This document shows positions 2,735-38,482 of a stretch of DNA of 38,482 nt, piece by piece. Every line of letters begins with the position of its first letter. Position 1 is the first letter of the stretch. The notes under the pieces are model-generated. The model was not told where the DNA came from. It worked only from the letters and a program-made list of their open reading frames with translations, and ran no database searches. Made by a program: the position numbers and the translations under genes. The stretch is from IMG/VR virus record IMGVR_UViG_3300045988_071605, positions 1 to 38,482 of that record. One strand, given 5' to 3'. This stretch comes from a virus.

Positions 2735-4345
2735 CTAAAGCGATAGCTTTTTGAATGACAGGTTGCCGTTTGCGCGGGGAATGAAAGCGAAATCGCCGAG
2801 CTGTAACGAATGGATAAAATGCCCGTCCGTGACGTATAGCTTATTGTCCGAGAAATACGCCACTTCAACGGCGTCCTGAAGAAAAGAAATCCGGTCGTTG
2901 CTAATTTTCAATTCAAGCTCATTTCCGACCTGTCCGAGCAGAATAGAGCCGTCCACAAAGCGGATATACTTCCGTATCTCTTCAAACTCTGCATCCGTAC
3001 CAGCCGCTACCGCTTCGATGTCGGCGCTGAACTGGTTGAACTGGATTTCAACGCTTTCCTTCGTCTGCTCAATCTGCGTACTGACAGAGGAAACAAGAGC
3101 GTCCGTATCGTCTTTCAGATAGTAGTTTTCCGCAACGGTTGACTTGATGTTTTCTTCGGACACCTGCAAGGATGCAAGCAAATTCTGTTCCACGTTGTAA
3201 ATGGCCGTAGAAGCCGTTTTAGACGCATTTTCTATTTGCAGTATAATTTCCCCTTGTGCATCGGAAAGCCCCGCAAGCGCCCCGGAAATGCCCTCTAATG
3301 CGCCGCCAAGCGTCAACTTGTTTGCGCCCGGCTCTAACAACTTCAAAGACAGCTTTGTCACAAGAAAATTCTGGTCTATCCCGTGCGGATTGCTTGTAAC
3401 TTTGACGTATGTTCCAAGGTGGAAACTGCTGAAGGAAGCGTCAACGGCCGCAAGGTCAGCCGCTGTCAGCTCTATGGTTTCCGGCTGGTTGACAAGGCCG
3501 GAAATGTATGCTTGTCCCTTTGCCAGAAGGTTTGACGCTTCGGTCACGTCATCCCATGTATGCGTGGCAAAAATAAGACCGTATTTGTCAGCGGCTTCCT
3601 CATCGACGATATAATCAAGGCCGTCATTGACGGCGGCAACCGTCAGGCGGTTGTCTGTGTCCTTTCCTTCACCGTCCTTCAGCTTTGCGCCAAGCGGAAA
3701 AAGCGCCGTTGCGATGTCTGCGCCTTTCCTGATCCGCTTCAGGTCAAGAAGATTCTTTCCGAAGGTGATCTTCTGCGGAGAAAGCAGCGTGAAATCTTGC
3801 AGATAATCAATGTAGTTGATATAGCCTTCATGCCGGATGACGATATAGCCGCCGAGCAGGTCAATCAGCTTCTTTTGCACTTCCGTCCATGTATCAACAT
3901 AGTCAATATTGGAACGGACGATATAATCATTCGGATCGGTGACAGTCACATTCCCGACCGTGAACCATTTTGATTCTTCCACCTGTGCATTATGGTTATC
4001 TATCAGCAGATTCAGGAAGCCGGAAACCGTCCCGGAATAGTCATAAGGGCGCTGGATGCTGTCCAACAGGAAAGCAAGCTCGCCCTCGCAGGTCACATGC
4101 TTTTCGTTGTAGAAGCCTATTTCAATGTCAAGAACGCGCCCACGGAAGATTAAATAATCATCCTGATAAATCGTGATGATCGACCGCAGCTTTTTTATTG
4201 CGCTGTACTGTGGATGACCGGGATAAACTGTGAATTGAAAGCTGCCGGTCTTGTTCAGCTCCAATTCCAAGGACGGATTGAAGATTTTCAGGCTTTCAAG
4301 GCTGCTGTTATACAGCGTCGCGCCGTCACAATATACCCTGTACAT
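2735..4345 (-). CDS. Tal-like minor structural protein (prophage endopeptidase-tail / TIGR01665-like N-terminus, C-terminal coiled coil), copy B
   Basis: Start refined to ATG4345, 2 nt after the upstream stop. N-terminus MYRVYCDGATLYNSSLESLKIFNPSLELELNKTGSFQFTV... is typical of siphovirus Tal/antireceptor N-domains. Confidence 0.85.
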   Translation of the reverse strand: MYRVYCDGATLYNSSLESLKIFNPSLELELNKTGSFQFTVYPGHPQYSAIKKLRSIITIYQDDYLIFRGRVLDIEIGFYNEKHVTCEGELAFLLDSIQRPYDYSGTVSGFLNLLIDNHNAQVEESKWFTVGNVTVTDPNDYIVRSNIDYVDTWTEVQKKLIDLLGGYIVIRHEGYINYIDYLQDFTLLSPQKITFGKNLLDLKRIRKGADIATALFPLGAKLKDGEGKDTDNRLTVAAVNDGLDYIVDEEAADKYGLIFATHTWDDVTEASNLLAKGQAYISGLVNQPETIELTAADLAAVDASFSSFHLGTYVKVTSNPHGIDQNFLVTKLSLKLLEPGANKLTLGGALEGISGALAGLSDAQGEIILQIENASKTASTAIYNVEQNLLASLQVSEENIKSTVAENYYLKDDTDALVSSVSTQIEQTKESVEIQFNQFSADIEAVAAGTDAEFEEIRKYIRFVDGSILLGQVGNELELKISNDRISFLQDAVEVAYFSDNKLYVTDGHFIHSLQLGDFAFIPRANGNLSFKKLSL

Positions 4346-4347
4346 AA

Positions 4348-4995
4348 TCACAGCCCCGCTTCCTGATAGGAAAAGGAAATCGTTCCTTCTCCGGTGACGG
4401 AAACGCTGTTGTTTCCGGCCTTCAGTTCCAGTTCCGGCAATGTGTAGCTGCCGCTGCCCAAGTCCCAAATGTTGTATGTTTCATAGACGATATGCAGGGC
4501 GCTGTCTGCCGTGATCGTCACCAATGGCACAACGCGCTTTCGGAGATTCGGCAGGGAAATCACGCTTTCGCCGTTCACCGCCTGTGTGACAACTGTTTTT
4601 TCCGCTTTGTACTTCCACGGCTCGCACTCGCATTCCACGCTTATTTTGCCGATGTTCTTTTCATTCGTGAAAGATGAAACGAAGCACCGCCCGACATAGT
4701 AAAAAAGCGGATCACCGTCTAAGATGATCCGCTGCATTTTGCCGTGTATCGCGTTTTTGATGGTTGAAAAAAGTGTAAGGAATTCGCTTTGTGGCACTAT
4801 CGTTGAAAACTTGAATTTGTGCGTGACGTTTTCGTATTTCGGTTCGCCGAAAAACTCTGTCAGGTCAAGCGCCCCGTCTGCACCGGGAACGTCAATTTCA
4901 ATCGTTTTCACCTTCGGGGCTGCAATTTCCTTCGATGTCAAAAGCAGATTGAAATCTTTGTAGCTGTGATATGTGCCAAAAGTGATTCCTTTCAT
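4348..4995 (-). CDS. Distal tail protein (Dit)-like, copy B
   Basis: N-terminus MKGITFGTYHSYKDFNLLLTSKEIAAPKVKTIEIDVPGADGALDLTEFFG matches the phage tail component N-terminal (Sipho_tail) pattern. RBS AAGGGGG. Confidence 0.85.
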   Translation of the reverse strand: MKGITFGTYHSYKDFNLLLTSKEIAAPKVKTIEIDVPGADGALDLTEFFGEPKYENVTHKFKFSTIVPQSEFLTLFSTIKNAIHGKMQRIILDGDPLFYYVGRCFVSSFTNEKNIGKISVECECEPWKYKAEKTVVTQAVNGESVISLPNLRKRVVPLVTITADSALHIVYETYNIWDLGSGSYTLPELELKAGNNSVSVTGEGTISFSYQEAGL

Positions 4996-5006
4996 GTTTT
5001 ACCCCC

Positions 5007-5633
5007 TTAAGCCGCTTCTCTGTTTCCGAGATACCATTCGGTGACTACGATTTTATTCGTATTGCCGTACACGGCAAGCCTTGCCTTCCGGGCTGAATTG
5101 TAGGTATACGTCAAGCTAACTGTAGCATTTGCTTTTAGGTCTTCAGCATCTCCCCCAGAATAGTTCTTGTAAGAGGAATAAAGCAAGTCGCAGTATGAAC
5201 CACCAACAGCCGTAGTACATTTAGCCGATACTTTGGTATCCTGTGAGCAATCAATATCGCTTGAACACGCGCCCCAGTCCTGATAGCCGCCTTGGAACGT
5301 GAGTGTGTTGTCCTGAAACGTCAACGTACCATAACCATCATATTTCGTAATTTCACCATTGATAGCGCCGTACCAGTAGATATAATGATCCGGGCGAAGA
5401 CGAACGGTCGTCGTAGTATCATTTATAGACTTAGAAATAGCCATACCCGACATTCCAGCAGTAAAGGTGTACGCGCCTTTCTTCAGTTCAACTATACCTT
5501 CTCCATTGGACGAAAGAGTTATTGTTCCTGTTTCTGTTCCGGCATAAGAAACAACTTCATTCGCTCCGCCGTAAATCGTAACTGCAACTTTTCGTCCGCC
5601 ACCAGCGCCGCCGACATTTGTTCTACCTATCAT
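5007..5633 (-). CDS. Tail-tip accessory / fibre protein (Gly-rich N-terminus MIGRTNVGGAGGG, Cys-containing beta domain)
   Basis: Start refined to ATG5633, after GGAAGGGG. Located within the tail-tip gene block. Confidence 0.65.
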   Translation of the reverse strand: MIGRTNVGGAGGGRKVAVTIYGGANEVVSYAGTETGTITLSSNGEGIVELKKGAYTFTAGMSGMAISKSINDTTTTVRLRPDHYIYWYGAINGEITKYDGYGTLTFQDNTLTFQGGYQDWGACSSDIDCSQDTKVSAKCTTAVGGSYCDLLYSSYKNYSGGDAEDLKANATVSLTYTYNSARKARLAVYGNTNKIVVTEWYLGNREAA

Positions 5634-5635
5634 TT

Positions 5636-6526
5636 TCAATTCCCCTTCCAGCAAAGTATTGTCGGAATTGTGATTGCAGCTTCCGGCGCTTCCGACGCAT
5701 AAAGATAAACGCCGCCGTTGTAGGTTTCAGCGCACGGCGCAAAAATTCCGCTCATGGCATCCACGACGCCGAAAACGACTTCGGGAATCATGCTGGACGT
5801 TACGCCGGTAAGCGCCACCGCCGCCCGATACGGAAAATCTTCATATGTCGAATCGGCGACGAAGGAAGCAACGGGGACAGCCGTGTTAATGAACTGAAGC
5901 TTTTTCAGCTCAACCGCCGTCCCGGCTTCGAGCTGCGCAAGCTCCGCCTGTATGGACGCGAGAAGCGCCGTAAACTGTCCCTGAATCGTGGTGGTGTCAA
6001 TGGACAGCGTATCGGTCACAAGACCGCAGACGGAAGCGTCAAGGCGTTCGTCCGTAATCATGGAAGCCGTGATCGCCGTTGTACCGGCAGCGACGGAAAT
6101 CTGCGCAAGGCTGATCTGCCGCTTCGTGCCGCTGTTGGTCAGTGCCGGAGCTGCCGCCGTGCTGGACGCCGTGCCTTTCAGGATTTTGATTTCCGGGCGG
6201 TCAACGTAGTTCGTCGTTTTCCACTCGACAATAACGCGGTCAATGCGGTTCAGAACGCCGTCCGCTGCGTCAATGGCAAGCAGCAACTTTGCGCCGTTGA
6301 CGCTCTCTTCGTCGTTCCACCAGACGACACCGTCACCGGCTGCGTTTGCCATCCATCCCGTACCGTCCGAGACTGTGACAGACATTTCCGGCGTTGCAAG
6401 CGCGGCAACCGCCGCATTCCCGGACGCGGCGAAAACGCCGGATGTCCGTCCGTGCAGCCAGCGCATGACATCTTCTGCGCCGCTGTATTCGTCCTGATTG
6501 TTCGGGAAACTTTTAATTTCAGCCAT
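5636..6526 (-). CDS. Tail fibre / baseplate protein with a central coiled-coil-like segment
   Basis: 296 aa. Segment DTLSIDTTTIQGQFTALLASIQAELAQLEAG is typical of a trimeric fibre neck. Position is downstream of Tal-like copy A. Confidence 0.7.
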   Translation of the reverse strand: MAEIKSFPNNQDEYSGAEDVMRWLHGRTSGVFAASGNAAVAALATPEMSVTVSDGTGWMANAAGDGVVWWNDEESVNGAKLLLAIDAADGVLNRIDRVIVEWKTTNYVDRPEIKILKGTASSTAAAPALTNSGTKRQISLAQISVAAGTTAITASMITDERLDASVCGLVTDTLSIDTTTIQGQFTALLASIQAELAQLEAGTAVELKKLQFINTAVPVASFVADSTYEDFPYRAAVALTGVTSSMIPEVVFGVVDAMSGIFAPCAETYNGGVYLYASEAPEAAITIPTILCWKGN

Positions 6527-7544
6527 TTAATTTCAACTCCCCCAAAGCAGTTAATATTGGATCGCCCAAAATGATTTCGGTGCTTGTGCTGTTCGCGTCC
6601 ATTTTATATTTAACCCCGGTAATCCGGGCATTGAAGGACACGCCGAAGCGCACGGACACGCAAGAAACGATGTCGCCGAGATTGTAGGCAACGCCGAGAT
6701 CGGCGCTGTCAATCGCAACGGAAAAGGACTTGCGCCGAATGCGCTTGCCCAGCTCCATTGTCGCATAGGCTCGCGCACGGGCTTTGCAGTCATCGGCGCT
6801 TTCGTCATCTTCCTGCCGGACATTGGTGTCCAGCCAGACTTCGCGGCGCGTGTCGCCGGTCGCCGTGCCGACCTCTTCCACAAAGGCAACATCGTTTTTC
6901 AGCGTACCTGTGGCATAGGCAAAGTTTTTCAGCGTGGAATCATCGTCGTTTATGACAAGCTCCTGCGCCGTGCCTTGCTCTTCGGAAAAGACAACCGCGT
7001 GGATGCCGTCCGTCAGGTCTGCGCCCTTGTAGATTTGGAATGTGTGGGAAAGCGTCTCTGCATCCCACACCATTTTCTGACCCAGCCCGGCTTCTTCCAG
7101 ATAGGGCATAATCTCATCCAGAAGCTGACCGCCTTTCAGGATCGCGTCTGTGGCTTCTGTAAACCCTGTAGCAGCCGCCGTTGCAAGCCGCGACATATTC
7201 CGAAGGTTCGCATTGATAAGCGCGTACACGCCCGTTTCCAGCGTTGTCAGGTGGTATTCGGAAGCAATGCAGCGCTTGTTCAGCAGCCAGTTTGCCGTAT
7301 AGCCGTTCGCCGTGATTCTGTTTTCATCCGTGTCGTGCTTCGTGTTTACGATGATGTACGTAACACCGCGTTTCGTGTCGAAAAGCATATTGCCGACTTG
7401 CAGCGCCTTGATGTTATAGTCATTTACCGGCGCAACAAGCGTCAGCTTTCCAATGTCGTTGTAGTAAACGGACATCTGGACGGAAACCGCGTGCTTCAGC
7501 TCGTAGCGTGTGGAGAAGTCCGAAGGATAGATTTCAAGGCTCAT
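6519..7544 (-). CDS. Siphovirus Gp37-like (ReqiPepy6 Gp37 family) tail protein in the Tal position, copy A
   Basis: N-terminus MSLEIYPSDFSTRYELKHAVSVQMSVYYNDIGKLTLVAP... resembles the Sipho_Gp37 family. It follows a Dit-like gene with a 4-nt overlap. Confidence 0.75.
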   Translation of the reverse strand: MSLEIYPSDFSTRYELKHAVSVQMSVYYNDIGKLTLVAPVNDYNIKALQVGNMLFDTKRGVTYIIVNTKHDTDENRITANGYTANWLLNKRCIASEYHLTTLETGVYALINANLRNMSRLATAAATGFTEATDAILKGGQLLDEIMPYLEEAGLGQKMVWDAETLSHTFQIYKGADLTDGIHAVVFSEEQGTAQELVINDDDSTLKNFAYATGTLKNDVAFVEEVGTATGDTRREVWLDTNVRQEDDESADDCKARARAYATMELGKRIRRKSFSVAIDSADLGVAYNLGDIVSCVSVRFGVSFNARITGVKYKMDANSTSTEIILGDPILTALGELKLNG

Positions 7545-8404
7545 AGCGCAATCCCCACAATTTCTGTTGCAAAGTCAACGTCCACCTGAAGGTTTTCCAG
7601 CCCGGACGCTGCTTCCGGCTTCAGAACGTTGTCCCCGACATCCAGCCGGAACAGGTTGCTTGTCAGAGACAGAGCGCCCCGGCAGTCTCCGTCCACGGAT
7701 GACGTTACATAGGTTCTTTCATGCGTGATCTCCACGACAAGCCTTTCACCGCTGACAAGCGTTTTCTTGATGAGCAGGAATTTTCCGGTCGTGGCGTTCG
7801 TGATCTTCGGGTTTTCGACTTCGCCCTTGGCAACAAAGGTTGCCGTGAACGGAATAGGCACTTGCCCACGGTTCGCAACGTTCATAAACTGCGTCTGCAT
7901 GAGCTGTCCAAAGCGGTACGTCTTTGAAAAATTGCACGGCAGTCTAAAGAGCTTCTGAACGCCGGAAAGCGTGGCGCTTGCGGAATCATCCTTGCACCAA
8001 TACGGATACGCCGCCAGAAGCGAAAGCTGAAACTGTGCAAGCTGTCGCTTCGGCTCAATGACCGGCGTCGCCGTTGGATAAACGGACAGATAATAGTCAT
8101 CGGCATAGAGCTTGCCGCCGATGTCCGGGCGCACGACAGAAAGCAGCTTGTCTTTGTTTACTGTCTGCGCGTCGCCGACAAGATAGCCCGTGATCGTCAC
8201 CGGGCGCGGCTGAATGTTGGTGCTTTGGATCGTCGCGCCGACTTGGTCAATGCCCTGCGCCTGTGACAGATTGATGGACAGCGTATCAATGCCGGAAGGC
8301 TTATTGATGAGAAAGCCCCCGGCATAGTCAAACGTTATGCTGTCGCCGTTATCGTTCACATAGCGGAACAGCTTAGAAAGATTGTTGAAATTCAAATTGC
8401 CCAC
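7541..8404 (-). CDS. Distal tail protein (Dit)-like phage tail family protein, copy A
   Basis: 287 aa, immediately after a tape-measure gene. Sipho_tail-like pattern (ITFDYAGGFLINKPSGID ... PVTITGYLVGD). Confidence 0.8.
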   Translation of the reverse strand: MGNLNFNNLSKLFRYVNDNGDSITFDYAGGFLINKPSGIDTLSINLSQAQGIDQVGATIQSTNIQPRPVTITGYLVGDAQTVNKDKLLSVVRPDIGGKLYADDYYLSVYPTATPVIEPKRQLAQFQLSLLAAYPYWCKDDSASATLSGVQKLFRLPCNFSKTYRFGQLMQTQFMNVANRGQVPIPFTATFVAKGEVENPKITNATTGKFLLIKKTLVSGERLVVEITHERTYVTSSVDGDCRGALSLTSNLFRLDVGDNVLKPEAASGLENLQVDVDFATEIVGIAL

Positions 8405-10260
8405 CTCGCTTGCTCGAAATAAGCCGCCGTTGCGCTTGCAAGCTGAACGGGCGTCTGTGCCGGTGCGTTGATGTACTGATTGATCGTGACGCCGTTTCCT
8501 GCACCGCCGTTACCCTTGCGCCATGCGTCGGCTTCCGATGCCGTCAGCACCGCTTCGCCCTCATGGAGCAGCGCGGGGAAGCCGTTGTAAGGCACAAAGT
8601 CAAGCCCTTTGGCAAAGCCGCTTGTGTCATAGGTTTTGCCGCCACCAGAACCAGAAACCGTAACGCCGACTGTCCTGTTGCTGAAAAGCCCGTCCCAAAG
8701 ACCATTAAACCAGTTTTTCAGCCCCTGCCATGCGTTGGAAATGCCCTCTTTGATCTTGTCAACGACCTGCTGACCGACATTGACAATGCTGCCCCACATT
8801 TCGCCGACGCCTTCAACGATGGTCGTTATGATCTCACCGGCAGATTTGCCAAGCGTGAAAAGGTTGTCGGCGATACCGGAAACGATCTGCACAACGATTT
8901 CAGCCGCAGACAACAGAAGCTGCGGCGCGGCTGCGATCAGTTCCTGCACCAGCCTTGAAATGATCGTCGGCGCTTGCGCAATCAGAATCGGAAGCGCAGC
9001 GATAAGCCCTTCAGCCAGCGCGGAAATAAGATCGACCGCCGCATCAACAAGAAGGTTGACATTTTCTACAAGCGTCATCACGATCTGCAAAACGACATCA
9101 ACGATTGTCGGAATCAGCGTCGGAAGGCTCTGTGAAATGCCCGCTGCCAGAGCAAGGATAAGCTGACCGGCGGACGAAACGACAACCGGCAAGCTCGAAA
9201 TCAGCGCCGTAATCAGCGTGTTAATGATCTGCGGCGCGGTTTGCGTGATGACCGGCAAAATGGTTGCAAGAATCGCCGGAAGCTGACTGCCAAGGCTGTC
9301 AATCAGCGTGACAATGCTGTCAATGATGCTCGGCAAAAGCTGATTGATAAGCGGCGGGATTTCCGGCGCGAGCTGCGCGACAAGCTGCGAAATGCCCGTT
9401 GTCAGGCTTGGCAAAATGTCGCCGATTGCCTTTGCGAGAAGTCCGGCAGAATTTACGACCGTACCAACAAGCGCGTCTATGCTGCCTGTTCCGGTCAGCC
9501 AGTTATCCCACGCGGCTTTTGTGGATGCAAGACTGCCCTGAATGGTTGTTGCCGCTTCTTGCGCCGTTGTGCCTGTGATTCCCATTTCCGTCTGGACGTC
9601 GTGAATGGCGCTGACAATGTCGGCATAACTGTCTATGCTGTATTTTGTCATGTTGCCCTGCGCAGCGTTCAAGGCGTTTGCATCGTCAATCAGACGCTGC
9701 ATTTCCTCTTTCGTTCCGCCATAGCCGAGCTTCAGGTTGTCCAGCATGGTGTAATTCTGCTTTGCAAAACCGGCATAAGCGTTCTGGATGGATTCCATGC
9801 TTGAACCCATCTTGTTTGCGTTGTCCGACATATCAATGACCGCCATGTTGCCGATCTCTGCCGCTTTTTCCGTGTCACCGCCCAAAGACTGAAGCAGGGA
9901 CGCAGAAAAGCTTGTGACCGTCTCCATGTAGTCATTGGCAGACAGACCAGCGGTCTTGTAGGCGTTGTTTGCATATTCAAGGACTTTCGCGCTGCTATCC
10001 TTGAAAAGCGTTTCCACGCCGCCGACAAGCTGTTCATATTCGGCATAGTTTTCAACGGCGGATTTTGTAAGCGCGGCGATTCCGGTTGCTGCTGCGCCGA
10101 TTGCCGCAAGGGACGCTTTGCCGACAGTTTTTGCAACAGAACCAAAGAATTTTCCTATCTTTTCGCTTGCTTCTTTGGATTTTTTCGTCGTGTTATCAAG
10201 CTCTTTGTGTGCATCTTTGTTGTTAATGGCGATTGTGCCGAATATCTTAAATAATTCCAA
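8392..10260 (-). CDS. Tape measure protein 2 (TP901-family core)
   Basis: TTG start 5 nt after AGAAGGTGAAGG. Core motifs YAEYEQLVGGVETLF, DMSDNANKMGSSMESIQNAYAGFAKQNYTMLDNLKLGYGGTKEEM; long helical LP..I repeats; C-terminal FVPYNGFPALLHEGEAVLTASEA. Confidence 0.9.
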   Translation of the reverse strand: MELFKIFGTIAINNKDAHKELDNTTKKSKEASEKIGKFFGSVAKTVGKASLAAIGAAATGIAALTKSAVENYAEYEQLVGGVETLFKDSSAKVLEYANNAYKTAGLSANDYMETVTSFSASLLQSLGGDTEKAAEIGNMAVIDMSDNANKMGSSMESIQNAYAGFAKQNYTMLDNLKLGYGGTKEEMQRLIDDANALNAAQGNMTKYSIDSYADIVSAIHDVQTEMGITGTTAQEAATTIQGSLASTKAAWDNWLTGTGSIDALVGTVVNSAGLLAKAIGDILPSLTTGISQLVAQLAPEIPPLINQLLPSIIDSIVTLIDSLGSQLPAILATILPVITQTAPQIINTLITALISSLPVVVSSAGQLILALAAGISQSLPTLIPTIVDVVLQIVMTLVENVNLLVDAAVDLISALAEGLIAALPILIAQAPTIISRLVQELIAAAPQLLLSAAEIVVQIVSGIADNLFTLGKSAGEIITTIVEGVGEMWGSIVNVGQQVVDKIKEGISNAWQGLKNWFNGLWDGLFSNRTVGVTVSGSGGGKTYDTSGFAKGLDFVPYNGFPALLHEGEAVLTASEADAWRKGNGGAGNGVTINQYINAPAQTPVQLASATAAYFEQARWAI

Positions 10261-10284
10261 TGACCTTCACCTTCTTTCCGTGAA

Positions 10285-10320
10285 GATAAAATAAAAGAAG
10301 GTCACCGGAAACGTGACCTT
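10285..10320 (-). terminator. Intrinsic terminator between the two tape-measure genes
   Basis: Minus-strand AAGGTCAC-gtttccg-GTGACCTT (8-bp stem) directly after the TMP1 stop, followed by CTTTTATTTTAT. Confidence 0.7.
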
Positions 10321-12060
10321 CTATCGTGTGTTACCCCTCTGGGCATGATTCCATCTATCCGAAAGCTGCATATCTATTGCCGGTGTAAGCTCGCCGACAA
10401 GGACGCCGGAATCAAGCCGTACACCATGCGGCATAGACCGTGCAAGGAAATCAATTAAAAGCTGTGTCTGCTCGATGAGCGTCTTTCTGACGCCCTCATT
10501 CTCACCCCTGACAGCAGTCCGGACATAATCCAGCAGCGTATCAATGGGCGCTATAGCTTCTTTTCCAGCTTCCCCGCCGCCAAGCAGCGTATCGCCAACG
10601 CGCCCGAAGATTGTTGCTTTGTCAAGGATGCCGCCTTCGGCGTTCCACTTGACATTAAAATTCGGAAGCTTGCCTTTTCCGGCGATGCCAAAAGGAGCTT
10701 TTCCGCCTGACACGCTGATCTTCGGGATTTTCAAGTTGCTGAAAATCTTTCCGATACTCAAAGGGAAGAAGCCCTTGATTTTGTCAATGGCGTTCTTTAC
10801 GGCGTCCCGCGCTCCCTCGATCTTGTCAACAATGGCGTCCTTAATGCTGCCGAAGGTGTTCTTCACCTTGGAAACAGCGCTTTTCAAATCGCCAAACTTG
10901 TTTTTGATCCACGCGACCGCTGACGATGTTGCCGATTTGATTTTCTCCCACATCTTCAGCCAGAAGTTGCGGAAGCCTTCGTTGTTTTTCCAAAGGTACA
11001 CGAAAGCCGCCACAAGGCCGATAATAAGCGAGACAATAAGCCCGATTATATTTGCCTTCATTGCCAGATTCAACGCCTTCACGCCGCCTGTGACAAGCTT
11101 CAGCGCGGTCGTGGCCTTGCTCATTATGCTTCCCCACTTCAGCACAAGGACAAACCCGGAAACCGTGACCGTTGCCGCAAGGATACCCGCCGCCCACGCC
11201 TGCACGGTGCTTTTGTTCTGCTTGAACCATTTAATCATGTCCTTTATTTTCGTTATAAAGGATTGGAGCAGGGGAACAGCCGCGGCAACCATTTCAGCGG
11301 TCTTATTCTTGATAGCGGTCAATATAGGTTCGCCGACGCGCCCAAGCTCGGCAAAGGCAGACGATAGCTTTTCATTGGCTCTATTTGCCGCCATAACGTC
11401 TTTATTCGTCTCTTTGTACTGCTCGGACGCTTTCTTATATGTGCCGTTCAGCGTGTCCATAATGAGCTTCTGGCGCTCCTGCTCGGTGCTGCAAGCGTCA
11501 AGTTTTGCCTGAAACTCTTCTTCTCCGATTCCTGCCCAGTTCAGCGCATCGACAAGGCCGCCTGTAAGCTGTCCGGTTTTCGCGGTCTCGTTAGCCGCTT
11601 CTGTCAAGCCCTCAATGGGCAAGCTGTCCCCGAACGTAGCAAAGACGCCGGTGCAAATGTCCGTCCACGTCTGCAAATCCTTTTCGTTATCCGTCATTAC
11701 GGCAAGATGGTTTGCAGCTTCAACCGATACGTCCGTATCGCCAAGGACGGCTTGCAAGTCCTGATACGTCTTTTTTGCCGCTTCGGAAGAATGTCCGTTC
11801 GTGACAAAGGCCGTGTCCAGCTTGCCCATTTCCGTTCTATATTCTCTGGAACTTTCGATTGCTGCTATCCATGCGCCGCCCAAAGCAGCACCGGCAGTCA
11901 GCACGGATTTTCCGATTTTCAGCGCAGATTCTCCGATCTTCTTAAAAGACGAATCGGTTTTCTTGCTTCCGGCTTCCGCTTTGTTCGCGGTATCGTCAAT
12001 GGCTTCTTTCGCCTGTGCATTGTCAACGGCAATCGTGCCGAGCAGCTTGAAAAGTTCCAT
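10321..12060 (-). CDS. Tape measure protein 1 (two central TM helices)
   Basis: Motifs LPIEGLTEAANETAKTGQLTGGLVDALNWAG, TEQERQKLIMDTLN. TM segments AWAAGILAATVTVSGFVLVL and IIGLIVSLIIGLVAAFVYLW. C-terminal GGGEAGKEAIAPI motif. Confidence 0.9.
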   Translation of the reverse strand: MELFKLLGTIAVDNAQAKEAIDDTANKAEAGSKKTDSSFKKIGESALKIGKSVLTAGAALGGAWIAAIESSREYRTEMGKLDTAFVTNGHSSEAAKKTYQDLQAVLGDTDVSVEAANHLAVMTDNEKDLQTWTDICTGVFATFGDSLPIEGLTEAANETAKTGQLTGGLVDALNWAGIGEEEFQAKLDACSTEQERQKLIMDTLNGTYKKASEQYKETNKDVMAANRANEKLSSAFAELGRVGEPILTAIKNKTAEMVAAAVPLLQSFITKIKDMIKWFKQNKSTVQAWAAGILAATVTVSGFVLVLKWGSIMSKATTALKLVTGGVKALNLAMKANIIGLIVSLIIGLVAAFVYLWKNNEGFRNFWLKMWEKIKSATSSAVAWIKNKFGDLKSAVSKVKNTFGSIKDAIVDKIEGARDAVKNAIDKIKGFFPLSIGKIFSNLKIPKISVSGGKAPFGIAGKGKLPNFNVKWNAEGGILDKATIFGRVGDTLLGGGEAGKEAIAPIDTLLDYVRTAVRGENEGVRKTLIEQTQLLIDFLARSMPHGVRLDSGVLVGELTPAIDMQLSDRWNHAQRGNTR

Positions 12061-12100: not shown

Positions 12101-12810
12101 TTATGCGTCAGGTGGCACAAAATCCATTTCCATTGTGTGCTTCACAATGGCGGCAAGCTCTTCTTTTGTTGCGGTTTTCGGCGGCTGACGGTTCATTGCA
12201 TCGCGGCATTCGGCGTAAGATCGTTCAAAGTCCTTGTGCAGCCAAAATTCCCACGTTGCTTTCTCTTCCAGCTCTTCATTGCGGATGTCCACAAGCTCGG
12301 AAATAAACTCGTCCAGCCGTCCGGTTTTTATCATCTGATCCAGCAGGATCAACGGGCTTGAATAGCGCTGAAACAGCAGGTCAATGAACCGGATGTCATT
12401 CAGCCGAACAGCCCGGCAACATCCTGAAAAAAATCCTTAAATTCCTCTTTCTTGATGACGTCAACGATCATCGAAAGGAAAACGTTCATCGGCAGCGCGG
12501 CAATCTCTTTCTTGCTCATGCCGGACAGCCCGGAAAGAAGCTGATAGATGTCATCCTTGCACTTCGGAACGTTGGCAATGATGACGGACGCCACATCGAC
12601 GGCAACCATCAGCCCCAGCGCCGTGGTGTCGATCTCCGCGCCCTCTGCGCCCTCTTCTTTTTCAGCGGTCATGCTGCGGATCGCCGTGCGCAGCTCTTCC
12701 GATTCAAAGCAGCCCTTGAACTCTTTCAGCCCGATACCGGAAATGATCTTCAGCATCGGGAAAACATCTTCGGCGGTCAGTCCGCGCAGCGTATATGTTT
12801 TTTCGGTCAT
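12101..12810 (-). CDS. Tail assembly chaperone GT-like fusion made by a -1 programmed frameshift
   Basis: The -1 frame is open from the slippery site (12427-12433) through ORF 12101..12352. Hand translation gives ...SGCCRAVRLNDIRFIDLLFQRYSSPLILLDQMIK... with no stop. Confidence 0.7.
12400..12810 (-). CDS. Tail assembly chaperone (G-like, frame-0 product)
   Basis: 136-aa acidic protein between the major tail and tape-measure genes. It ends 25 nt after a T7 slippery run. Confidence 0.85.
   Translation of the reverse strand: MTEKTYTLRGLTAEDVFPMLKIISGIGLKEFKGCFESEELRTAIRSMTAEKEEGAEGAEIDTTALGLMVAVDVASVIIANVPKCKDDIYQLLSGLSGMSKKEIAALPMNVFLSMIVDVIKKEEFKDFFQDVAGLFG
12427..12433 (-). promoter_or_regulatory. 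-1 ribosomal frameshift slippery heptamer T TTT TTT
   Basis: Minus-strand GAT TTT TTT CAG in frame 0 (7 consecutive T). Canonical position at the 3' end of the chaperone gene. Confidence 0.7.
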
Positions 12811-12878: not shown

Positions 12879-13460
12879 TCAGGTGGAAGCCTTGGGATAG
12901 TAGATGTGCCAAGGCAGCTTGTCCAGCTCGCCGGTCAGCTCGGCATAGCATTCAAAGGTATACTTGCCGACAGCGCCTTCCTTGTTCTTGCCTTCCTGCT
13001 CAAAGCCGGACGTGACAAGGGCATTGTCCAGAATGGCGATGATATTTTCGCCTTCCAGCGTCTTGCCGACAAAGGCGATATTTTCCCAATAGTCGCCCGT
13101 GGCAATGTTGGACTTGCTTTCGATGACGTCAAAATTGGTGGCGTCGGCAGAAGTTCCTTCCGCGCCGAAGGTCGCCGCCTTGATGATGTCTTTCGTCAGC
13201 TCAATGAAGTTGACTTCCATACTCGCGGTTTCGCCGGTTTTCGCGGCAAGCCCCTTCGTTTTCACCAGAACGCCGTCAACCTCAATGTTGGTAATCTCCG
13301 GGATAATGGACAGCTTAGAGCCGCCCGAAGTAGCGCCGACAAGGGACGCTTCATAGTTCCACGCATTGGACGTGTATTTCAGTCCTTTGTGGATCGTGCC
13401 AGCACCGAAAAGAATGCTTTTCGTCGTGTTTTCGGTCACGCCGTGTTTGCCAGTAATCAT
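12879..13460 (-). CDS. Major tail protein
   Basis: Start refined to ATG13460 (ATGA overlap with the upstream stop, GGAG RBS). 193 aa, upstream of the chaperone pair. No sheath gene is present. Confidence 0.8.
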   Translation of the reverse strand: MITGKHGVTENTTKSILFGAGTIHKGLKYTSNAWNYEASLVGATSGGSKLSIIPEITNIEVDGVLVKTKGLAAKTGETASMEVNFIELTKDIIKAATFGAEGTSADATNFDVIESKSNIATGDYWENIAFVGKTLEGENIIAILDNALVTSGFEQEGKNKEGAVGKYTFECYAELTGELDKLPWHIYYPKAST

Positions 13461-13852
13461 ATGTTCACACTCCATTCCTGCACGGATAGATTGATCTGGA
13501 TGCTTTTCAACCGCGCATCCTCTTTCGGGATAATCAAGGCGATGTCATAAAAAATAGCCACGGCTGAACCATCGTCAGCCATGACCGTTTTTCCGCTCAC
13601 CTTGTTAAAATAGGATTCGATTTTTGCCTTTGCCGTTTCAAGCTCCTGCCATGTCCCCCGGTGGAAGCCGGTCAGCATGATCGTTGCCGTCTGCTGTCCA
13701 TCCTCATTCATCGGCGGGCTTTCGATGTACTCACCCACGAAATACGGATAGACGATCTTTCCGGCAGCGTTCCCGGCGTAAGAGCCGAAGCCGTAGGCAA
13801 TGTCAAGGGATTTCATGGCGGCAGAAACGATTTCAAGCGGTTTCGTTGTCAT
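13457..13852 (-). CDS. Tail terminator / tail completion protein
   Basis: 131 aa, located between the gp10-like gene and the major tail gene. The call is positional. Confidence 0.65.
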   Translation of the reverse strand: MTTKPLEIVSAAMKSLDIAYGFGSYAGNAAGKIVYPYFVGEYIESPPMNEDGQQTATIMLTGFHRGTWQELETAKAKIESYFNKVSGKTVMADDGSAVAIFYDIALIIPKEDARLKSIQINLSVQEWSVNI

Positions 13853-17004: not shown

Positions 17005-17910
17005 TCAGCCGATCAGGGCTTTCCATGTGTCGCTTCCGACTTCTCCGTCAGAAAGAATCTTTGCCGCCGTCTGAAAAGATTTGACCGCGCTTTCGGTTTT
17101 CTCGCCGAAGCTGCCGTCAACATCGACGGACATTCCGCGAAAGACCAAAAGCGTTTGCAGAGCCTTTACAGAAAGCCCCGTGTGCCCTCTTTTCAGCAGG
17201 GGAAGGGTAACGGTGCAGGTTTCCGCTGCGCCGCTTGTGGGCGCTTCTGCGGCTTCTCCGGCAGCACCGGGAATCTTCAGCACCTGCCCTGCGTGGATAA
17301 GCTCGGAAGCCAGTCCGTTCAGCGTTTTTATTTCTTTCCAGCGCGTCCCGTCGCCGAGCTGATTTGCCGCGATGCTCCAAAGAGAATCCCCGGCCTTGAC
17401 AGTGTAGGTCTTGCCCGTTCTGCCGGTTTCCTTGATCGCCGAAGAAGCGGTGTTCCCTGCGCCTGTATAGCGCAAAATGTTTGTCCACGGGAAATTTCGA
17501 TAACGGCGCTTCAGGAACTCGCCCCCGGTCTGATCTCCCGGTTTACCGCCTGTGATGCCGCCTTTTTCGTTGCCGGACGCTTCGACTTCATAGCCGTTGC
17601 CGCAATACATAGCGGTATGGTGTGTTACGTTCAAAAGCACATCACCGCGGACAAGGCCGCTGCCGGTGGAAAGGTTGATTTTGCTTGTTACATCTTCAAA
17701 GCCGCAGCGCTTGAAAACTGCAAGCATGTTGCCGGTATATGTTGCGCCGTTGCTCTTGACCGGCACACCGGCGTTTTCCCACGCCTGAATTACAGCGGCG
17801 GAACAGTCAAAATCTCCGTATTCTCCCCATCTGTAACGCTGGTCGTAACCGTGGGCGGGATCGTCCGCCCACGATTCCATTTGAGATATTGCCTTTTCAA
17901 TTACGCTCAT
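17005..17910 (-). CDS. Endolysin: N-terminal cysteine peptidoglycan hydrolase (NlpC/P60- or Amidase_5-like) + LysM + PG_binding_1
   Basis: Cys motif DFDCSAAV, His motif VTHHTAMY, GDQTGGE. LysM segment YTVKAGDSLWSIAANQLGDGTRWKEIKTLNGL...GQVLKIP. C-terminal LKRGHTGLSVKALQTLL...DGSFGEKTESAVKSFQ. Confidence 0.9.
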   Translation of the reverse strand: MSVIEKAISQMESWADDPAHGYDQRYRWGEYGDFDCSAAVIQAWENAGVPVKSNGATYTGNMLAVFKRCGFEDVTSKINLSTGSGLVRGDVLLNVTHHTAMYCGNGYEVEASGNEKGGITGGKPGDQTGGEFLKRRYRNFPWTNILRYTGAGNTASSAIKETGRTGKTYTVKAGDSLWSIAANQLGDGTRWKEIKTLNGLASELIHAGQVLKIPGAAGEAAEAPTSGAAETCTVTLPLLKRGHTGLSVKALQTLLVFRGMSVDVDGSFGEKTESAVKSFQTAAKILSDGEVGSDTWKALIG

Positions 17911-18134
17911 TCGGCGTCAGTCCCTTCGTCCTCTTCCGGACACTCTTCCGGGATACCGGCAAGGGAAGTCAGCAGCGACAGGACGCCAGCCAGCAGGGAC
18001 GCGCTGCCCACCATGAGCCAGTTTACCTCCGACATGACGGCAGTCGTGCCGATGGTAGCGACGGCGGTCTGCGCCACAGTTTTCAGCGCACGGATACCCG
18101 CCGCCTTGATCCAGTTCTTCCAACATCTTTTCAT
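17907..18134 (-). CDS. Holin (2 TM helices, acidic C-terminal tail)
   Basis: Start refined to ATG18134, 9 nt after AGGTGG. TM segments IRALKTVAQTAVATIGTTAV and WLMVGSASLLAGVLSLLTSLAGI; tail PEECPEEDEGTDAE. There is a 4-nt overlap with the endolysin start. Confidence 0.75.
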   Translation of the reverse strand: MKRCWKNWIKAAGIRALKTVAQTAVATIGTTAVMSEVNWLMVGSASLLAGVLSLLTSLAGIPEECPEEDEGTDAE

Positions 18135-18251
18135 TTGGTTTTTCCACCTTTCATAAAATATTAAAAGCAACCTGCCATCCCCTAATAATCCCCCGCGTGG
18201 AACGCAGGACTTCAGGAATGAGAAGCTGCTTTTTTACTTGATTGTGCGCAT

Positions 18252-18671: not shown

Positions 18672-20273
18672 TTAATTTTGAATTATACACTGTTCAATCA
18701 AGTCTGTAAAGTCCTTATTATCAATTCGCAGCAGCCGTGTTGATGCCGGTTTTATCATGCCAGCGTTGAAATAATAGGAACAGTCCTTTTTGCTTGTCTG
18801 CGGATCAATAAACCGTGTAACTCCGTTGACCTGTTCGGCGATGAAAACATGACCGCCGCCGCCTTGCCACTGTACTCTAACGATTGCCCTTGCACCGTCT
18901 CCGTAACCAGACATCATTGATTCAATGCTCTTTTTAATTGTGGTTGATCTGCTTCCGATTGGCGTTTCAAGGCTTGCAATGCCGTCTTTATATACATTTG
19001 CCCAGCCTTTGGGATTCAACATATACGGCAGCGTGTCAGGGGCATTAAGAATGGCTTCTGAAGCCGCAACATCATAGCCCCTTCTCCGTGCTTCATACGC
19101 GGAAACACACCGCTGACAGTTTACTTGATATTGTCTGCCTGTCGAATAAAGCGGATTCGTCGTATTATAACAATCGTCAACAGTATGCGAACTTAAAACC
19201 TTTGCCGTGTCAAGTTTATCAATGCCTGTTTTCTTAATAGCAGAAGCTCCGGTTGCTGCGGTCGCTTGCGAAGCGACATTTCCTGAAGCGTTGTCGGAAT
19301 CCGTTGCAGCCTTCAGATACTTTTCCTTGTACTCTTCAAAGTTTTTCGTCTTGTCAAGCCCGAAGTATTCAGCGCGGTCTTTCAGCGTTTGCAGCTCTTC
19401 TTCACCGAGCGCCCAGCGTGCGCGTGTGTTGGACGTGCAGCGGCAGTTGACAACCTCGGCAGCGCCCCCGGAAGGATCGCCGGGGAACATCAGCCCGTTG
19501 GAAAACTTTTCGTCCAGCTCCCGAATCTCGCCGTCAACGCGCCTGTGGGAATCGCGTGTGCGCCCGTCAAGCGCAGCGTCCCATTGCTTCACAACGTCCG
19601 CGCCCTTGGCTTTTGCGGCATACTGCGCATCGCGGGAAGATGTCTGCTGTATTCTGTGGCCTTCCGTCCGAGCGATTGTTTTTGCTCTGGACAGCGGAGC
19701 GCCGGACACGTTGCCGATGTTTCGGGCAATGTCACGATAGGGGAGAGAAGAAGCAATGCCCCGGCTGATCTCATGCGTGATCGTCTTTTTGAGCTTGGCG
19801 ACATCCACGCCCAACGCATTGTAAAGCCCGTTGCTGACTTTGCTGTCTGTCAGAATCGCCTTGACCGCCTGTGCCTGATCTATCGGCGCGATGACCGGAA
19901 CGCCCTGCTTGCTTATATCGTACATTGTGCCGATATAGCCGTCTTCATAGCAGCCTTTCAGGTATTTGTCAATGGTGGCGTAGTTGTCGCCGTGGAGCTT
20001 GTCCAGAATGCCGCTGACCTGCCCCTGAAGGGCTTTCTGGTACTGCTGCTGATAAACCTTTGACCGCTTCTGCGATTGCAGCAGCGCCTTTGTGGCGTCA
20101 TCCAAGCCGTCCTGCGACAACGCTTCATCCAGCAGGTCAATGTCCGCCTGAAAGCCCTTGACTTTCTCGTTGATGTCCCGCAGCGCCCGTGCATACTGCG
20201 CTTCAAGCTCTTTGATCGCGGCTTCCTCGCTGTCAAGCAAGGATTTCTGCACTTCAATTTCCCACTTATTCAA
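18672..20273 (-). CDS. MuF / SPP1 gp7-like head morphogenesis protein fused to a C-terminal papain-fold toxin domain (Tox-PL / glutamine-deamidase-like)
   Basis: MuF motifs AKTIARTEGHRIQQ, DGRTRDSHRRVDGE, VNCRCT (aa ~195-280). Low-complexity linker aa ~325-350. C-terminal motifs NCQRCVSAYEARRRGYDV (Cys386), GGGGHVFIAEQVNGVTRFIDPQT (His475, Asp490). Confidence 0.85.
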   Translation of the reverse strand: MNKWEIEVQKSLLDSEEAAIKELEAQYARALRDINEKVKGFQADIDLLDEALSQDGLDDATKALLQSQKRSKVYQQQYQKALQGQVSGILDKLHGDNYATIDKYLKGCYEDGYIGTMYDISKQGVPVIAPIDQAQAVKAILTDSKVSNGLYNALGVDVAKLKKTITHEISRGIASSLPYRDIARNIGNVSGAPLSRAKTIARTEGHRIQQTSSRDAQYAAKAKGADVVKQWDAALDGRTRDSHRRVDGEIRELDEKFSNGLMFPGDPSGGAAEVVNCRCTSNTRARWALGEEELQTLKDRAEYFGLDKTKNFEEYKEKYLKAATDSDNASGNVASQATAATGASAIKKTGIDKLDTAKVLSSHTVDDCYNTTNPLYSTGRQYQVNCQRCVSAYEARRRGYDVAASEAILNAPDTLPYMLNPKGWANVYKDGIASLETPIGSRSTTIKKSIESMMSGYGDGARAIVRVQWQGGGGHVFIAEQVNGVTRFIDPQTSKKDCSYYFNAGMIKPASTRLLRIDNKDFTDLIEQCIIQN

Positions 20274-36789: not shown

Positions 36790-38442
36790 TTGTATTATCA
36801 ACCGAAGATAGATTTTAAGCCGGAAGAAGTCATTGATTATTTAAGAAAATCCCGCTCGGATGATCCGCTGCTGACTGTGGAAGAAGTCCTTTCCAAGCAT
36901 GAATCCATGTTGGACGAATGGGCAGAAAAGCACCTCGGCGCGGTCGTTCCGGAAGAGAATAAATACAGGGAAGTGGTATCCGGCGAGACCATAGCCGAAC
37001 GCCCGGAGATCAACCGCGTTTTGAGATTGATAGAATCGCCGAAATATAAGGCCGTTGCCGTGGTAGAGCCGCAGCGTTTAACCCGTGGCGATCTTGAAGA
37101 TATAGGGCGGCTGATGAAGCTGCTGAAGCACACAAACACGCTTGTCATCACGCCGCAGCGCATTTATGACCTGCGGGATGAATACGACTGGGACGCCTTT
37201 GAACGCGAGCTGAAGCGCGGAAATGACTATCTGGAATACACAAAGAAAATTTTGAACCGTGGGCGGCTGCTGTCCGTCAGTCAGGGAAACTATGTCGGCA
37301 ATACGCCGCCGTATGGCTATGATAAAACGTTTGTCACGGAGGGGAAGAGGAAGTGTCCTATCCTTGTTCCGAATAAAGCAGAGGCGGACGTTGTACGCAT
37401 GATGTTTGACCTGTATGTCAACAAAGACATGGGCTGCACAAACATCTGCAAGAAGTTTGATGAAATGGGAATCAAGCCGCCGAAAGGGGATTATTGGTCT
37501 CCGGCAGCAATGACAAAGATGCTCCAAAATATTCACTATATCGGGAAAGTCAAGTGGAATCACCGAAAGACGCTGACCATCGTTGAAGAAGGGGAGTTCA
37601 AGAAAACGCGCCCGGTTGCGCAAGTAGGGGAGTTCCTAATATACGACGGAAAGCACGAAGCCATTATTCCCGAAGAGCTGTTCAACGCTGCGCAAGCCAA
37701 GAAGGGAAAGAACACGCGCCAGAAGCCGAACACGAAAGTCAGAAATCCGTTTGCCGGTCTGATCTGGTGCAAGTGCGGACGCGCTATGTCCCTTAGGACA
37801 TACAAAAACCGCGATGCAGCGCCGCGCCTTTTGTGCGACGGACAAACCCATTGCAAAACCGGCTCTTGCCTGTATTCCGAAATGGAAGAGCGCGTAATAT
37901 CGATCCTGACGGATTGCATCAAGGATTTTGAAATCCGCTTGAAGAATGACGAAGGCGATTCTGCCAAGCTCCACGCACGGCTTATCAAGAATCTGGAAGC
38001 CAAGCAGAAAGAGCTTGACGAAAAAGAGCTTGCCCAATGGGAAGCGCAAGCTGACCCCGATCCGGCAAAGCGGATGCCGCCGCATATCTTCCAGCAACTC
38101 AACGAAAAGCTGTTGAAGGAAAAAGAGGAAGTCAGACAGGCGCTTTGCAAGGCTTACGAATCCATGCCCGAACCTGTAAATTACGAAGAGAAGATCACGC
38201 AGTTTTCCGAAGCGCTCAACGCCTTAAAAGACCCGAACATTGACGCGGCAACAAAAAACAGGCTCTTGAAAGCCTGTATCGAACGCATTGAGTATCACCG
38301 GGACACGCCGCAGCGAATCAAAAGCCAGCAGGTAAGATATTACGACCCGGAACAGAAGCGCACACGCTACAAATCGCCGCTAAGCACGGGCGGCAACTGG
38401 ACAAGCCCGGAGATCGTGCTTGATGTTAAACTGAAGGCGTGA
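36790..38442 (+). CDS. Large serine recombinase (integrase)
   Basis: N-terminal resolvase-type catalytic motif YLRKSRSD, a recombinase domain, zinc ribbon CKCGRAMS...CDGQTHCKTGSC and a C-terminal coiled coil. TTG start. The stop lies inside the terminal repeat. Confidence 0.93.
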   Translation: MYYQPKIDFKPEEVIDYLRKSRSDDPLLTVEEVLSKHESMLDEWAEKHLGAVVPEENKYREVVSGETIAERPEINRVLRLIESPKYKAVAVVEPQRLTRGDLEDIGRLMKLLKHTNTLVITPQRIYDLRDEYDWDAFERELKRGNDYLEYTKKILNRGRLLSVSQGNYVGNTPPYGYDKTFVTEGKRKCPILVPNKAEADVVRMMFDLYVNKDMGCTNICKKFDEMGIKPPKGDYWSPAAMTKMLQNIHYIGKVKWNHRKTLTIVEEGEFKKTRPVAQVGEFLIYDGKHEAIIPEELFNAAQAKKGKNTRQKPNTKVRNPFAGLIWCKCGRAMSLRTYKNRDAAPRLLCDGQTHCKTGSCLYSEMEERVISILTDCIKDFEIRLKNDEGDSAKLHARLIKNLEAKQKELDEKELAQWEAQADPDPAKRMPPHIFQQLNEKLLKEKEEVRQALCKAYESMPEPVNYEEKITQFSEALNALKDPNIDAATKNRLLKACIERIEYHRDTPQRIKSQQVRYYDPEQKRTRYKSPLSTGGNWTSPEIVLDVKLKA

Positions 38443-38482
38443 TTTTTCGCGCCGTTCATTTCCATCAGTTGTGCGCACATTC
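38428..38482 (+). repeat. Terminal direct repeat, copy 2 (identical to 1..55)
   Basis: Base-by-base identity with nt 1-55. Contains the integrase stop TGA at 38440-38442. Confidence 0.98.

Follow-up and report, generated by a model that had tools for sequence, protein, structure and literature searches.

Two sets of tail-tip genes in one operon

We analysed a 38,482-nt stretch of viral DNA (IMG/VR record IMGVR_UViG_3300045988_071605, positions 1 to 38,482), here called the window and used in full as the reference for all coordinates, whose siphophage tail operon holds two genes for a tape measure protein (TMP) and two pairs of genes for a distal tail protein (Dit) and a tail hub (Tal). The operon lies on the minus strand from 13475 down to 945 and encodes, in this order, the major tail protein (MTP), the chaperone pair G/GT, TMP1, a hairpin, TMP2, DitA, TalA, a fibre, an accessory fibre, DitB, TalB and a DUF859 protein. 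The tube protein MTP (12879–13475; phrog_885, E 3e-54) would be common to both tip modules. The chaperone pair (12101–12810) sits between MTP and TMP1, with G at 12400–12810 and the T part extending to 12101; its slippery run T_TTT_TTT at 12433–12427 is the candidate site of a -1 frameshift, and from there the T frame is open at -1 relative to G. TMP1 (10321–12060, 579 aa) matches phrog_58 (8e-34), phrog_991, phrog_1272 and other TMP PHROGs, and a rho-independent terminator-like hairpin with a 10 bp stem and a T-run (10288–10322) starts on its stop codon. TMP2 (8392–10260, 622 aa; phrog_6900 with 1e-79, 991, 3981 and 58) begins with a TTG codon that is preceded by the ribosome-binding site GGTGAAGG.

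The genes following TMP2 fall into two sets, and in each of them the Tal gene is found directly 3' of its own Dit gene. Set A starts with DitA (7541–8404; PF22768 SPP1_Dit 3e-11, phrog_33 1e-25) and TalA, a short Gp37-type tail hub (6519–7544; PF14594 Sipho_Gp37 1e-35, phrog_538 and a weak PF06605 match). These are followed by a fibre of 296 aa (5636–6526; virion structural families phrog_9534, 1220 and 5339), which its position marks as a receptor-binding candidate, and by a putative accessory fibre of 208–215 aa (5007–5654), named from its position only, which differs among close relatives and has no family match among Pfam and PHROG profiles. Set B begins 11 nt past the stop codon of the accessory gene with DitB, a minimal distal tail protein (4348–4995; phrog_33 8e-20), and continues with TalB, a hub with a C-terminal coiled extension (2735–4345; PF06605 Prophage_tail 9e-15, phrog_3558 2e-128), and the DUF859 receptor-binding protein (945–2723; PF05895 2e-59), the C-terminus of which matches the receptor binding tail protein family phrog_7127. 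Right after the DUF859 stop codon a 22-nt inverted repeat at 907–954 with an A/T-rich flank is likely to be a bidirectional terminator ending the late operon.

An earlier note on this DNA, made from the sequence alone, had described two TMPs and two Dit/Tal pairs next to a single MTP and a single G/GT pair. All open reading frames were found on the minus strand as described and their families were confirmed by profiles, and a tblastn search of the twelve tail proteins against the window gave no further copies of any of them, MTP and G/GT included. The window also holds one set of neck proteins. The usual position of a TMP gene is half kept by each of the two, as TMP1 follows GT but precedes TMP2 and TMP2 precedes DitA but follows TMP1. 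Of the searches that the note had proposed, those with profiles covered the tail proteins and those with structure models covered DitB and TalA, and all four Dit and Tal proteins match Dit or Tal profiles. For the AlphaFold model of DitB (pLDDT 85) the top Foldseek matches in the PDB are all Dit proteins, the best being that of SPP1 (2x8k, E 2e-8) and others being the Dits of NF5, Douge, monocin, TP901-1, 80alpha and p2, and DitB is thus predicted to have the Dit fold, with an N-terminal belt and a galectin-like domain. DitA appears to be a distal tail protein on the grounds of its Pfam SPP1_Dit domain and phrog_33. The model of TalA is of low confidence (pLDDT 61; TM-scores 0.2–0.33), and its 45 matches with E ≤ 1e-3 are all hubs of the Tal, gp27, VgrG or Mu gp44 type; those to the Tal of NF5 (E 1e-10), the Tal of 80alpha and Listeria gp18 likewise come from this low-confidence model. 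Searching the PDB chains with the sequences of DitA, DitB, TalA and TalB gave nothing meaningful.

The window corresponds to scaffold_945 of the ENA assembly ERZ28574844 and is a closed circle of ~38.43 kb with 55-nt identical ends (1–55 and 38428–38482), the join being crossed by one Logan contig. The phage is temperate and has a serine recombinase and lysogeny genes. The concern that the two sets might result from a misjoin could be settled with two Logan contigs from SRR5273967 that match the window at 100% identity and share 25 nt with each other at 10003–10027. Each spans one of the two questioned junctions: the first holds TMP1, the hairpin and 258 nt of TMP2, while the second starts 234 nt into TMP2 and runs through both Dit/Tal sets, across the junction of the accessory gene and DitB, into the lysogeny genes. 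The same gene order was found in dozens of contigs from other metagenomes, and a misjoin is excluded. That the Logan assembly of this run breaks at 10003–10027 within TMP2 suggests a branch in the assembly graph, possibly from co-resident variants with a different inner cassette after the conserved TMP2 N-terminus.

Tape measures and their cognate tips

Both TMPs cover the same stretch of the profile phrog_991 (219–871 and 230–877, respectively), and neither matches a Pfam TMP model. To each other they are similar only in an N-terminal stretch (28% identity, E 8e-9). Both carry the N-terminal signature (M/L)E(L/I)FK(L/I)xGxIA...N....A...D.T, which also stands at the true N-terminus of TMPs that are the only one of their locus (L075, L118, L119 and others, where L-numbers are labels of IMG/VR loci). 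This signature is a general mark of this TMP superfamily and therefore no evidence of a special kinship between TMP1 and TMP2. It does, however, identify each of them as a complete TMP. One split TMP gene can be ruled out, as the two reading frames are not consecutive N- and C-terminal parts but span the same profile region, each with its own N-terminal signature and its own C-terminal region, and the view of the earlier note that neither TMP is a fragment could thus be upheld. At the usual 0.15 nm per residue the expected tail lengths are ~87 nm for 579 aa and ~93 nm for 622 aa.

To find out which TMP goes with which tip we compared the window with single-set phages. Over nearly the whole of its length TMP2 shares 46% identity with the only TMP of L075, a locus with one Dit, one Tal and a tube protein 74% identical to that of the window. 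With the single TMPs encoded by L072 and L113 it shares 38–47% identity from end to end, and these two TMPs are followed by homologues of DitA (49–50%), TalA (42%) and the fibre (55–56%). TMP1 shares its C-terminal 275 aa with two sole TMPs, those of NatCom_20922 and NatCom_27009 (33%; E 1e-33 and 2e-31), in alignments that reach the last residue, and its last ~100 aa match the terminal TMP fragment of the Javan261 prophage, and in all three cases genes of the DitB/TalB type come next. In the single-set loci L229 and L237 the TMP is TMP2-like in its N-terminal 530 aa and has a TMP1-like tail, and is directly followed by DitB (50–52%) and TalB (63–67%).

We then described this tail by a motif located in the last 50 residues, [LVIM][DN][STG]Gx[LMVI][LVIAM]G. 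Of the 19 TMPs other than TMP1 that stand before a DitB-like gene 18 have it, and of the 14 that stand before a DitA-like gene none has it (Fisher p 2e-8, for sequences that are not phylogenetically independent). The motif or a one-residue variant was also found on every TMP1-family protein, even though each of these precedes another TMP. Moreover, the identity of TMP1 among relatives tracks that of DitB (rho 0.87) and TalB (0.80) but hardly that of the second TMP (0.43), and loci in which MTP and G are of other types (37–40% identity) still keep the combination of TMP1, DitB and TalB. The homologies of the sole TMPs, the tail motif and the identity correlations point the same way: TMP1 is the partner of set B and TMP2 that of set A, and one module is nested within the other. 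That a block from TMP2 to the accessory fibre lies between TMP1 and its own Dit/Tal pair had already been suggested in the earlier note, and it is borne out by three independent lines, by this C-terminal pairing, by the intact N-termini and by the homology breakpoints described below. The comparison with single-set relatives proposed there gives the same picture, as these pair TMP2-like proteins with DitA/TalA and TMP1-like tails with DitB/TalB.

The inner cassette and its lineage

The limits of the inner block became visible in a comparison with L016, a relative with 92% identity in TMP1 and 82% in DitB. DNA homology stops at 10225, 36 nt into TMP2, and resumes at 5008, at the stop codon of the accessory gene. 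The exchangeable part (5008–10225, minus strand) hence consists of TMP2 from codon 13, DitA, TalA, the fibre and the accessory fibre as its last gene, and the left flank, which is conserved, includes the terminator as well as codons 1–12 of TMP2. The block as such agrees with that of the earlier note, and only its limits of about 5007–10320 had to be moved. In ten further pairs of relatives the right boundary was 0–91 nt before DitB in nine, and the left boundary was 72–303 nt after the TMP1 stop codon in eight, being deeper where the second TMPs are themselves related. No inverted or direct repeats flank the block, the only matches being of chance level (18–28 nt) and none of them at 5008 or 10225.

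The relatives were annotated by tblastn with the window proteins and a crude tiling of open reading frames, so that single gene calls may be off, and the counts of loci are counts of contigs and not of independent evolutionary events. Among them the cassette contains either DitA, a Gp37-type Tal and a fibre as in the window, or a second trio of DitB-like, TalB-like and DUF859-like genes with 30–40% identity, or other phrog_33 Dits together with phrog_538 or phrog_5555 Tals, some with collagen-like extensions. All cassettes examined continue after the second TMP with a phrog_33 Dit and then a gene of the Tal type, except for L106 and L146, which have the phrog_1194 type. The inner module is thus a self-contained cassette with its own TMP, Dit, Tal and fibres, which is swapped between relatives by recombination at two fixed boundaries, one in the first codons of the second TMP and one where DitB starts. 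TMP1, DitB, TalB and DUF859, on the other hand, are conserved together as an outer module.

Several relatives differ around these modules. In L049 (11768–12487, minus strand) and L046 (5981–6448, minus strand) a moron of ~150 aa resembling a signal-peptide protein or lipoprotein is inserted in reverse orientation between TMP1 and the second TMP. MTP and G are only 29–40% identical to those of the window, at a TMP1 identity of 63–85%, in L029–L031, L035, L037, L040, L042, L043, L047, L048, L059, L065 and L106, and where the locus reaches that far DitB (55–75%) and TalB (68–91%) are retained in them. As the tube and chaperone types differ while TMP1 is kept, the tube/chaperone block is exchanged independently of TMP1. 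In L224–L227, L230–L232, L234, L236, L239 and L043 ~1.36 kb interrupts the homology to TalB between the hub (residues 1–377) and the C-terminal part, which may point to an added domain or to a mobile element. The outer set initially seemed to be missing from L011, but this reading was rejected, since the other end of the same contig holds DitB, TalB and DUF859 (L161, IMGVR_UViG_3300045988_074817). More likely the inner and outer sets are separated there by an additional lysis cassette. In this contig a GH25 endolysin and holin-like genes come after the inner fibre genes (L011, 16816–18456), and if it is circular, its ends showing no overlap, the inner cassette may have come with lysis genes of its donor, resulting in two lysis cassettes. 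Also rejected was L156, a probable chimera: it lacks the outer set and its 59-kb contig continues into a portal of the P22 type, and in its twin L157 the outer set is present. NatCom phages (Blautia and others) seemed to have two places for TalB, but the one examined, NatCom_27009, is single-set and its second match lies in another tail protein.

Scanning IMG/VR with TMP1 resulted in 59 loci with TMP1 identities of 40–100%, and two more were added via TMP2. The N-terminus of a second TMP follows right after TMP1 in 57 of the 58 loci with enough DNA and, in the remaining one (L046), after a gap of 650 nt. DitB and then TalB were found in all 32 TMP1 loci with at least 9.9 kb downstream, at 4.4–8.8 kb past TMP1 (median 6.7 kb). 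When the search was anchored on TalB instead, 44 of the 50 loci with enough upstream DNA were clearly dual, three were single-set and one was without a TMP match; the other two, with a further TMP at a distance of more than 3 kb upstream, are probably dual. Single-set relatives exist for set A as well as for set B. TMP1 has a length of 575–590 aa in all but the most distant relatives, and the second TMP varies between 537 and 928 aa, with L046 (IMGVR_UViG_3300045988_082486) encoding TMPs of 581 aa and 928 aa.

Both sets are under strong purifying selection. Pairwise dN/dS is 0.04–0.17 overall across TMP1, TMP2, DitA, TalA, DitB and DUF859, with 0.04–0.13 for TMP1, 0.13–0.17 for TMP2 and 0.04–0.07 for DitA. 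For TalB it is 0.05–0.07 at informative divergence (L016, L019, L065) and 0.23–0.42 against close relatives, where dS is only 0.02–0.04. Against close relatives the dS of the inner genes (0.3–0.85) exceeds that of TMP1 and the outer set (0.02–0.26), which fits separate histories of the two. A recently acquired module not yet pruned, one of the options in the earlier note, is refuted by a layout that is lineage-wide and by dN/dS values of 0.04–0.17.

The hairpin after TMP1, which had also been noted earlier as a terminator between the two TMPs and was found again at 10288–10322, is a common property of these phages. A hairpin (dG ≤ -8 kcal/mol) with a T-run is present in 28 of 34 distinct TMP1 3' flanks, mostly at or overlapping the TMP1 stop codon, and at least ten different stem sequences occur. 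As it separates MTP, G/GT and TMP1 from everything downstream, DitB and TalB included, it cannot serve to choose one set over the other; probably it reduces the amount of tip proteins made, or it is a scar or landmark of the module boundary.

The lineage is large and belongs to the human gut, where it is widespread and abundant in metagenomes. The sole clue to its host is one contig of a metagenome-assembled genome, labelled 'Clostridia bacterium', from a scan of genome contigs. Using megablast against cultured and deposited phages we obtained only short matches to two unannotated faecal contigs. Full-text searches of the literature yielded no report of a phage that has two tape measure genes, two Dit/Tal sets, dual tail tips or bimodal tails, and matches for 'two tape measure' concerned chaperone genes. 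All parts belong to known families; what is new is the architecture.

Apart from the tail genes, the lysis cassette (17005–18170, with the endolysin at 17005–17910 and an r1t-type holin just upstream) is located not after the tail genes but within the block of head genes, between a MuF-like minor head gene and the scaffold gene, a position kept in relatives. The type of endolysin varies, with ELLD/LysM/PG_binding in the window, Amidase_2 and SPOR in L153, and GH25 and CW_7 in L156 and L157. The MuF-like minor head protein (18672–20273, minus strand) ends in a toxin-like domain (PF15644 Gln_amidase). L153 has ADPrib_exo_Tox followed by an ADP_ribosyl_GH gene instead, and taken together this resembles the known arrangement of MuF polymorphic toxins.

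What two tail modules could be for

The C-terminus of the TMP has been located inside the Dit-Tal cap (OE33PA, bioRxiv 10.64898/2026.05.20.726473), and in that part of the same preprint which relays the 80alpha neck structure the TMP N-terminus contacts the tail completion protein (bioRxiv 10.64898/2026.05.20.726473). In the window each TMP might dock by its C-terminal tail into its own Dit-Tal cap, giving two separate initiator complexes. Both TMPs keep the common N-terminal signature, and both complexes would draw on the single G/GT pair, on the tube protein and on one shared supply of terminator, completion and head proteins, and would compete for tube, chaperones and heads, each nucleating a tube. 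One infected cell would then release two kinds of virions with different receptor-binding tips, which in relatives with a much longer second TMP would also differ in tail length. The relative doses could be set by the terminator after TMP1 together with the frequent TTG start of the second TMP. What the phage would gain is a fixed 'core' adsorption device next to a replaceable one, and hence a broader or bet-hedged host range without any rearrangement of its DNA.

Because two cognate TMP-Dit-Tal sets stand next to one tube protein, one chaperone pair and one neck set, two alternative tails are the simplest reading of this genome. The step to two tails, including nucleation of the tube by both complexes, is inferred, and we regard it as about evenly balanced between right and wrong. 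We are slightly less confident in the wider proposal that such dimorphic virions, with the same head and tube and two TMP-templated tips, are made routinely and that the inner module is a portable plug-in exchanged among phages of gut Clostridia. Of the options given in the earlier note, that of 'alternative tail tips or host ranges' now has the most in its favour. Several points weigh against two alternative tails. With TMP1 upstream of the cassette and the terminator and DitB/TalB downstream of both, the doses of the outer TMP and its tip are uncoupled, which is odd for a simple two-tail model. In pairwise similarity the C-terminus of the second TMP correlates weakly with the inner Dit (rho 0.31, compared to 0.08–0.10 for other parts of the TMP), in a comparison limited by the crude tiling. 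Aligning the DitA with the DitB family and the TalA with the TalB family by hhalign gave no match (0.4% and 2.7%), though with alignments so shallow (Neff 1.7–3) that the result is uninformative. Finally, no cultured phage in INPHARED shows this layout and no cultured member of the lineage was found.

Among the rival explanations a composite single tail deserves the most attention, although we consider it rather unlikely. Every virion would then contain both sets, for example a bundle of three TMP1 and three TMP2 in the lumen of the tube and, stacked or as an elaborate baseplate at the tip, both Dit rings, both Tal trimers and two kinds of receptor-binding proteins. There are indeed precedents for hexameric TMP bundles ('3 long + 3 short') and for a second Dit ring (OE33PA, bioRxiv 10.64898/2026.05.20.726473; phage p2), both sets are always co-inherited and co-transcribed, and the TMPs of the window are similar in length. 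Outside the window, however, the second TMP ranges over 537–928 aa next to a nearly constant TMP1 of 575–590 aa, and the inner tips vary from a 341-aa Gp37-type Tal to Tals of 550–940 aa with collagen or fibre extensions and to phrog_1194. As the outer set stays constant while the inner types vary, a specific interface between inner and outer set is unlikely. In addition, each set functions alone in single-set phages, and two closed Tal domes could presumably not both cap one tube.

It is still less probable that infective tails are built by just one of the modules, either at any given time or altogether, with the other being conditional through read-through of the terminator or serving for headless tail-like particles. 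The position of a conserved terminator exactly between TMP1 and the rest would suit this idea, and so would the reverse-strand morons at the TMP1 junction of some relatives, by which the parts need not be one transcription unit. But DitB and TalB, like the inner set, lie beyond the terminator, neither a regulator nor an invertible element nor repeats at the flanks were found, and both sets are under equal purifying selection. A recent insertion or a redundant leftover, with one of the sets being lost, appears highly improbable. Insertion is the likely origin of the layout, since the gene order is what an insertion would give, but more than 90 loci, with TMP1 identities between 100% and 40%, keep the layout, with all open reading frames intact and the low dN/dS given above. 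An artefact, either a chimeric assembly or two halves of one split TMP gene, is hardly conceivable at all: the break of the Logan assembly inside TMP2 could be taken as a hint of it, yet the identical contigs overlap there and each crosses a junction, many independent metagenomes show the same order, and both TMPs map to the same profile region with N-terminal signature and C-terminal region.

If two tails are indeed made, this would challenge the textbook 'one gene, one structure' view of tail length and tip identity in siphophages and would offer a route to broaden or hedge the host range while the DNA stays unrearranged. The lineage shows that host range can be exchanged in units as large as a whole initiator complex, with the C-terminal tail of the TMP as the matching key, and the C-terminal tail rule is of practical use for pairing TMPs with tip types in annotation. 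Given its abundance in human gut metagenomes, the lineage bears on host prediction and on the engineering of phages for Clostridia. Whether the tails are dimorphic can be tested directly.

Each of the two sets resembles the canonical module of siphophages of Gram-positive bacteria (SPP1 gp18/gp19.1/gp21; TP901-1, p2 and 80alpha), in which TMP, Dit, a gp27-like Tal and a receptor-binding protein go along with one MTP and one G/GT pair. In contrast to these the present lineage has two modules per genome including two TMPs, a conserved nesting and a terminator after the first TMP. Alternative receptor specificities from one genome, which would be the outcome here, are known from the inversion of the G segment in Mu and the C segment in P1 and from the retroelement of Bordetella phage BPP-1. 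These systems change only the fibre or the receptor-binding tip, by inversion or mutagenic retrohoming, whereas here a whole TMP-Dit-Tal-receptor-binding protein module would be alternated and both versions are encoded side by side. Unlike in Mu and P1, our repeat search found no flanking inverted repeats, a scan for an invertase or reverse transcriptase not having been made. Relevant for a composite tail is lactococcal phage p2, in which a single baseplate can hold two Dit hexamers on top of each other, but its double ring comes from one gene, with one Tal and one TMP, and not from two Dit genes as in the window. K1-5 and SP6 with their dual tailspikes, CBA120 and the lactococcal 936 phages with dual receptor-binding proteins likewise have two receptor-binding devices per phage. 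However, these multivalent phages attach the additional receptor-binding proteins to a single Dit/Tal or adaptor and have one TMP, whereas in the lineage described here hub, ring and TMP are all duplicated.

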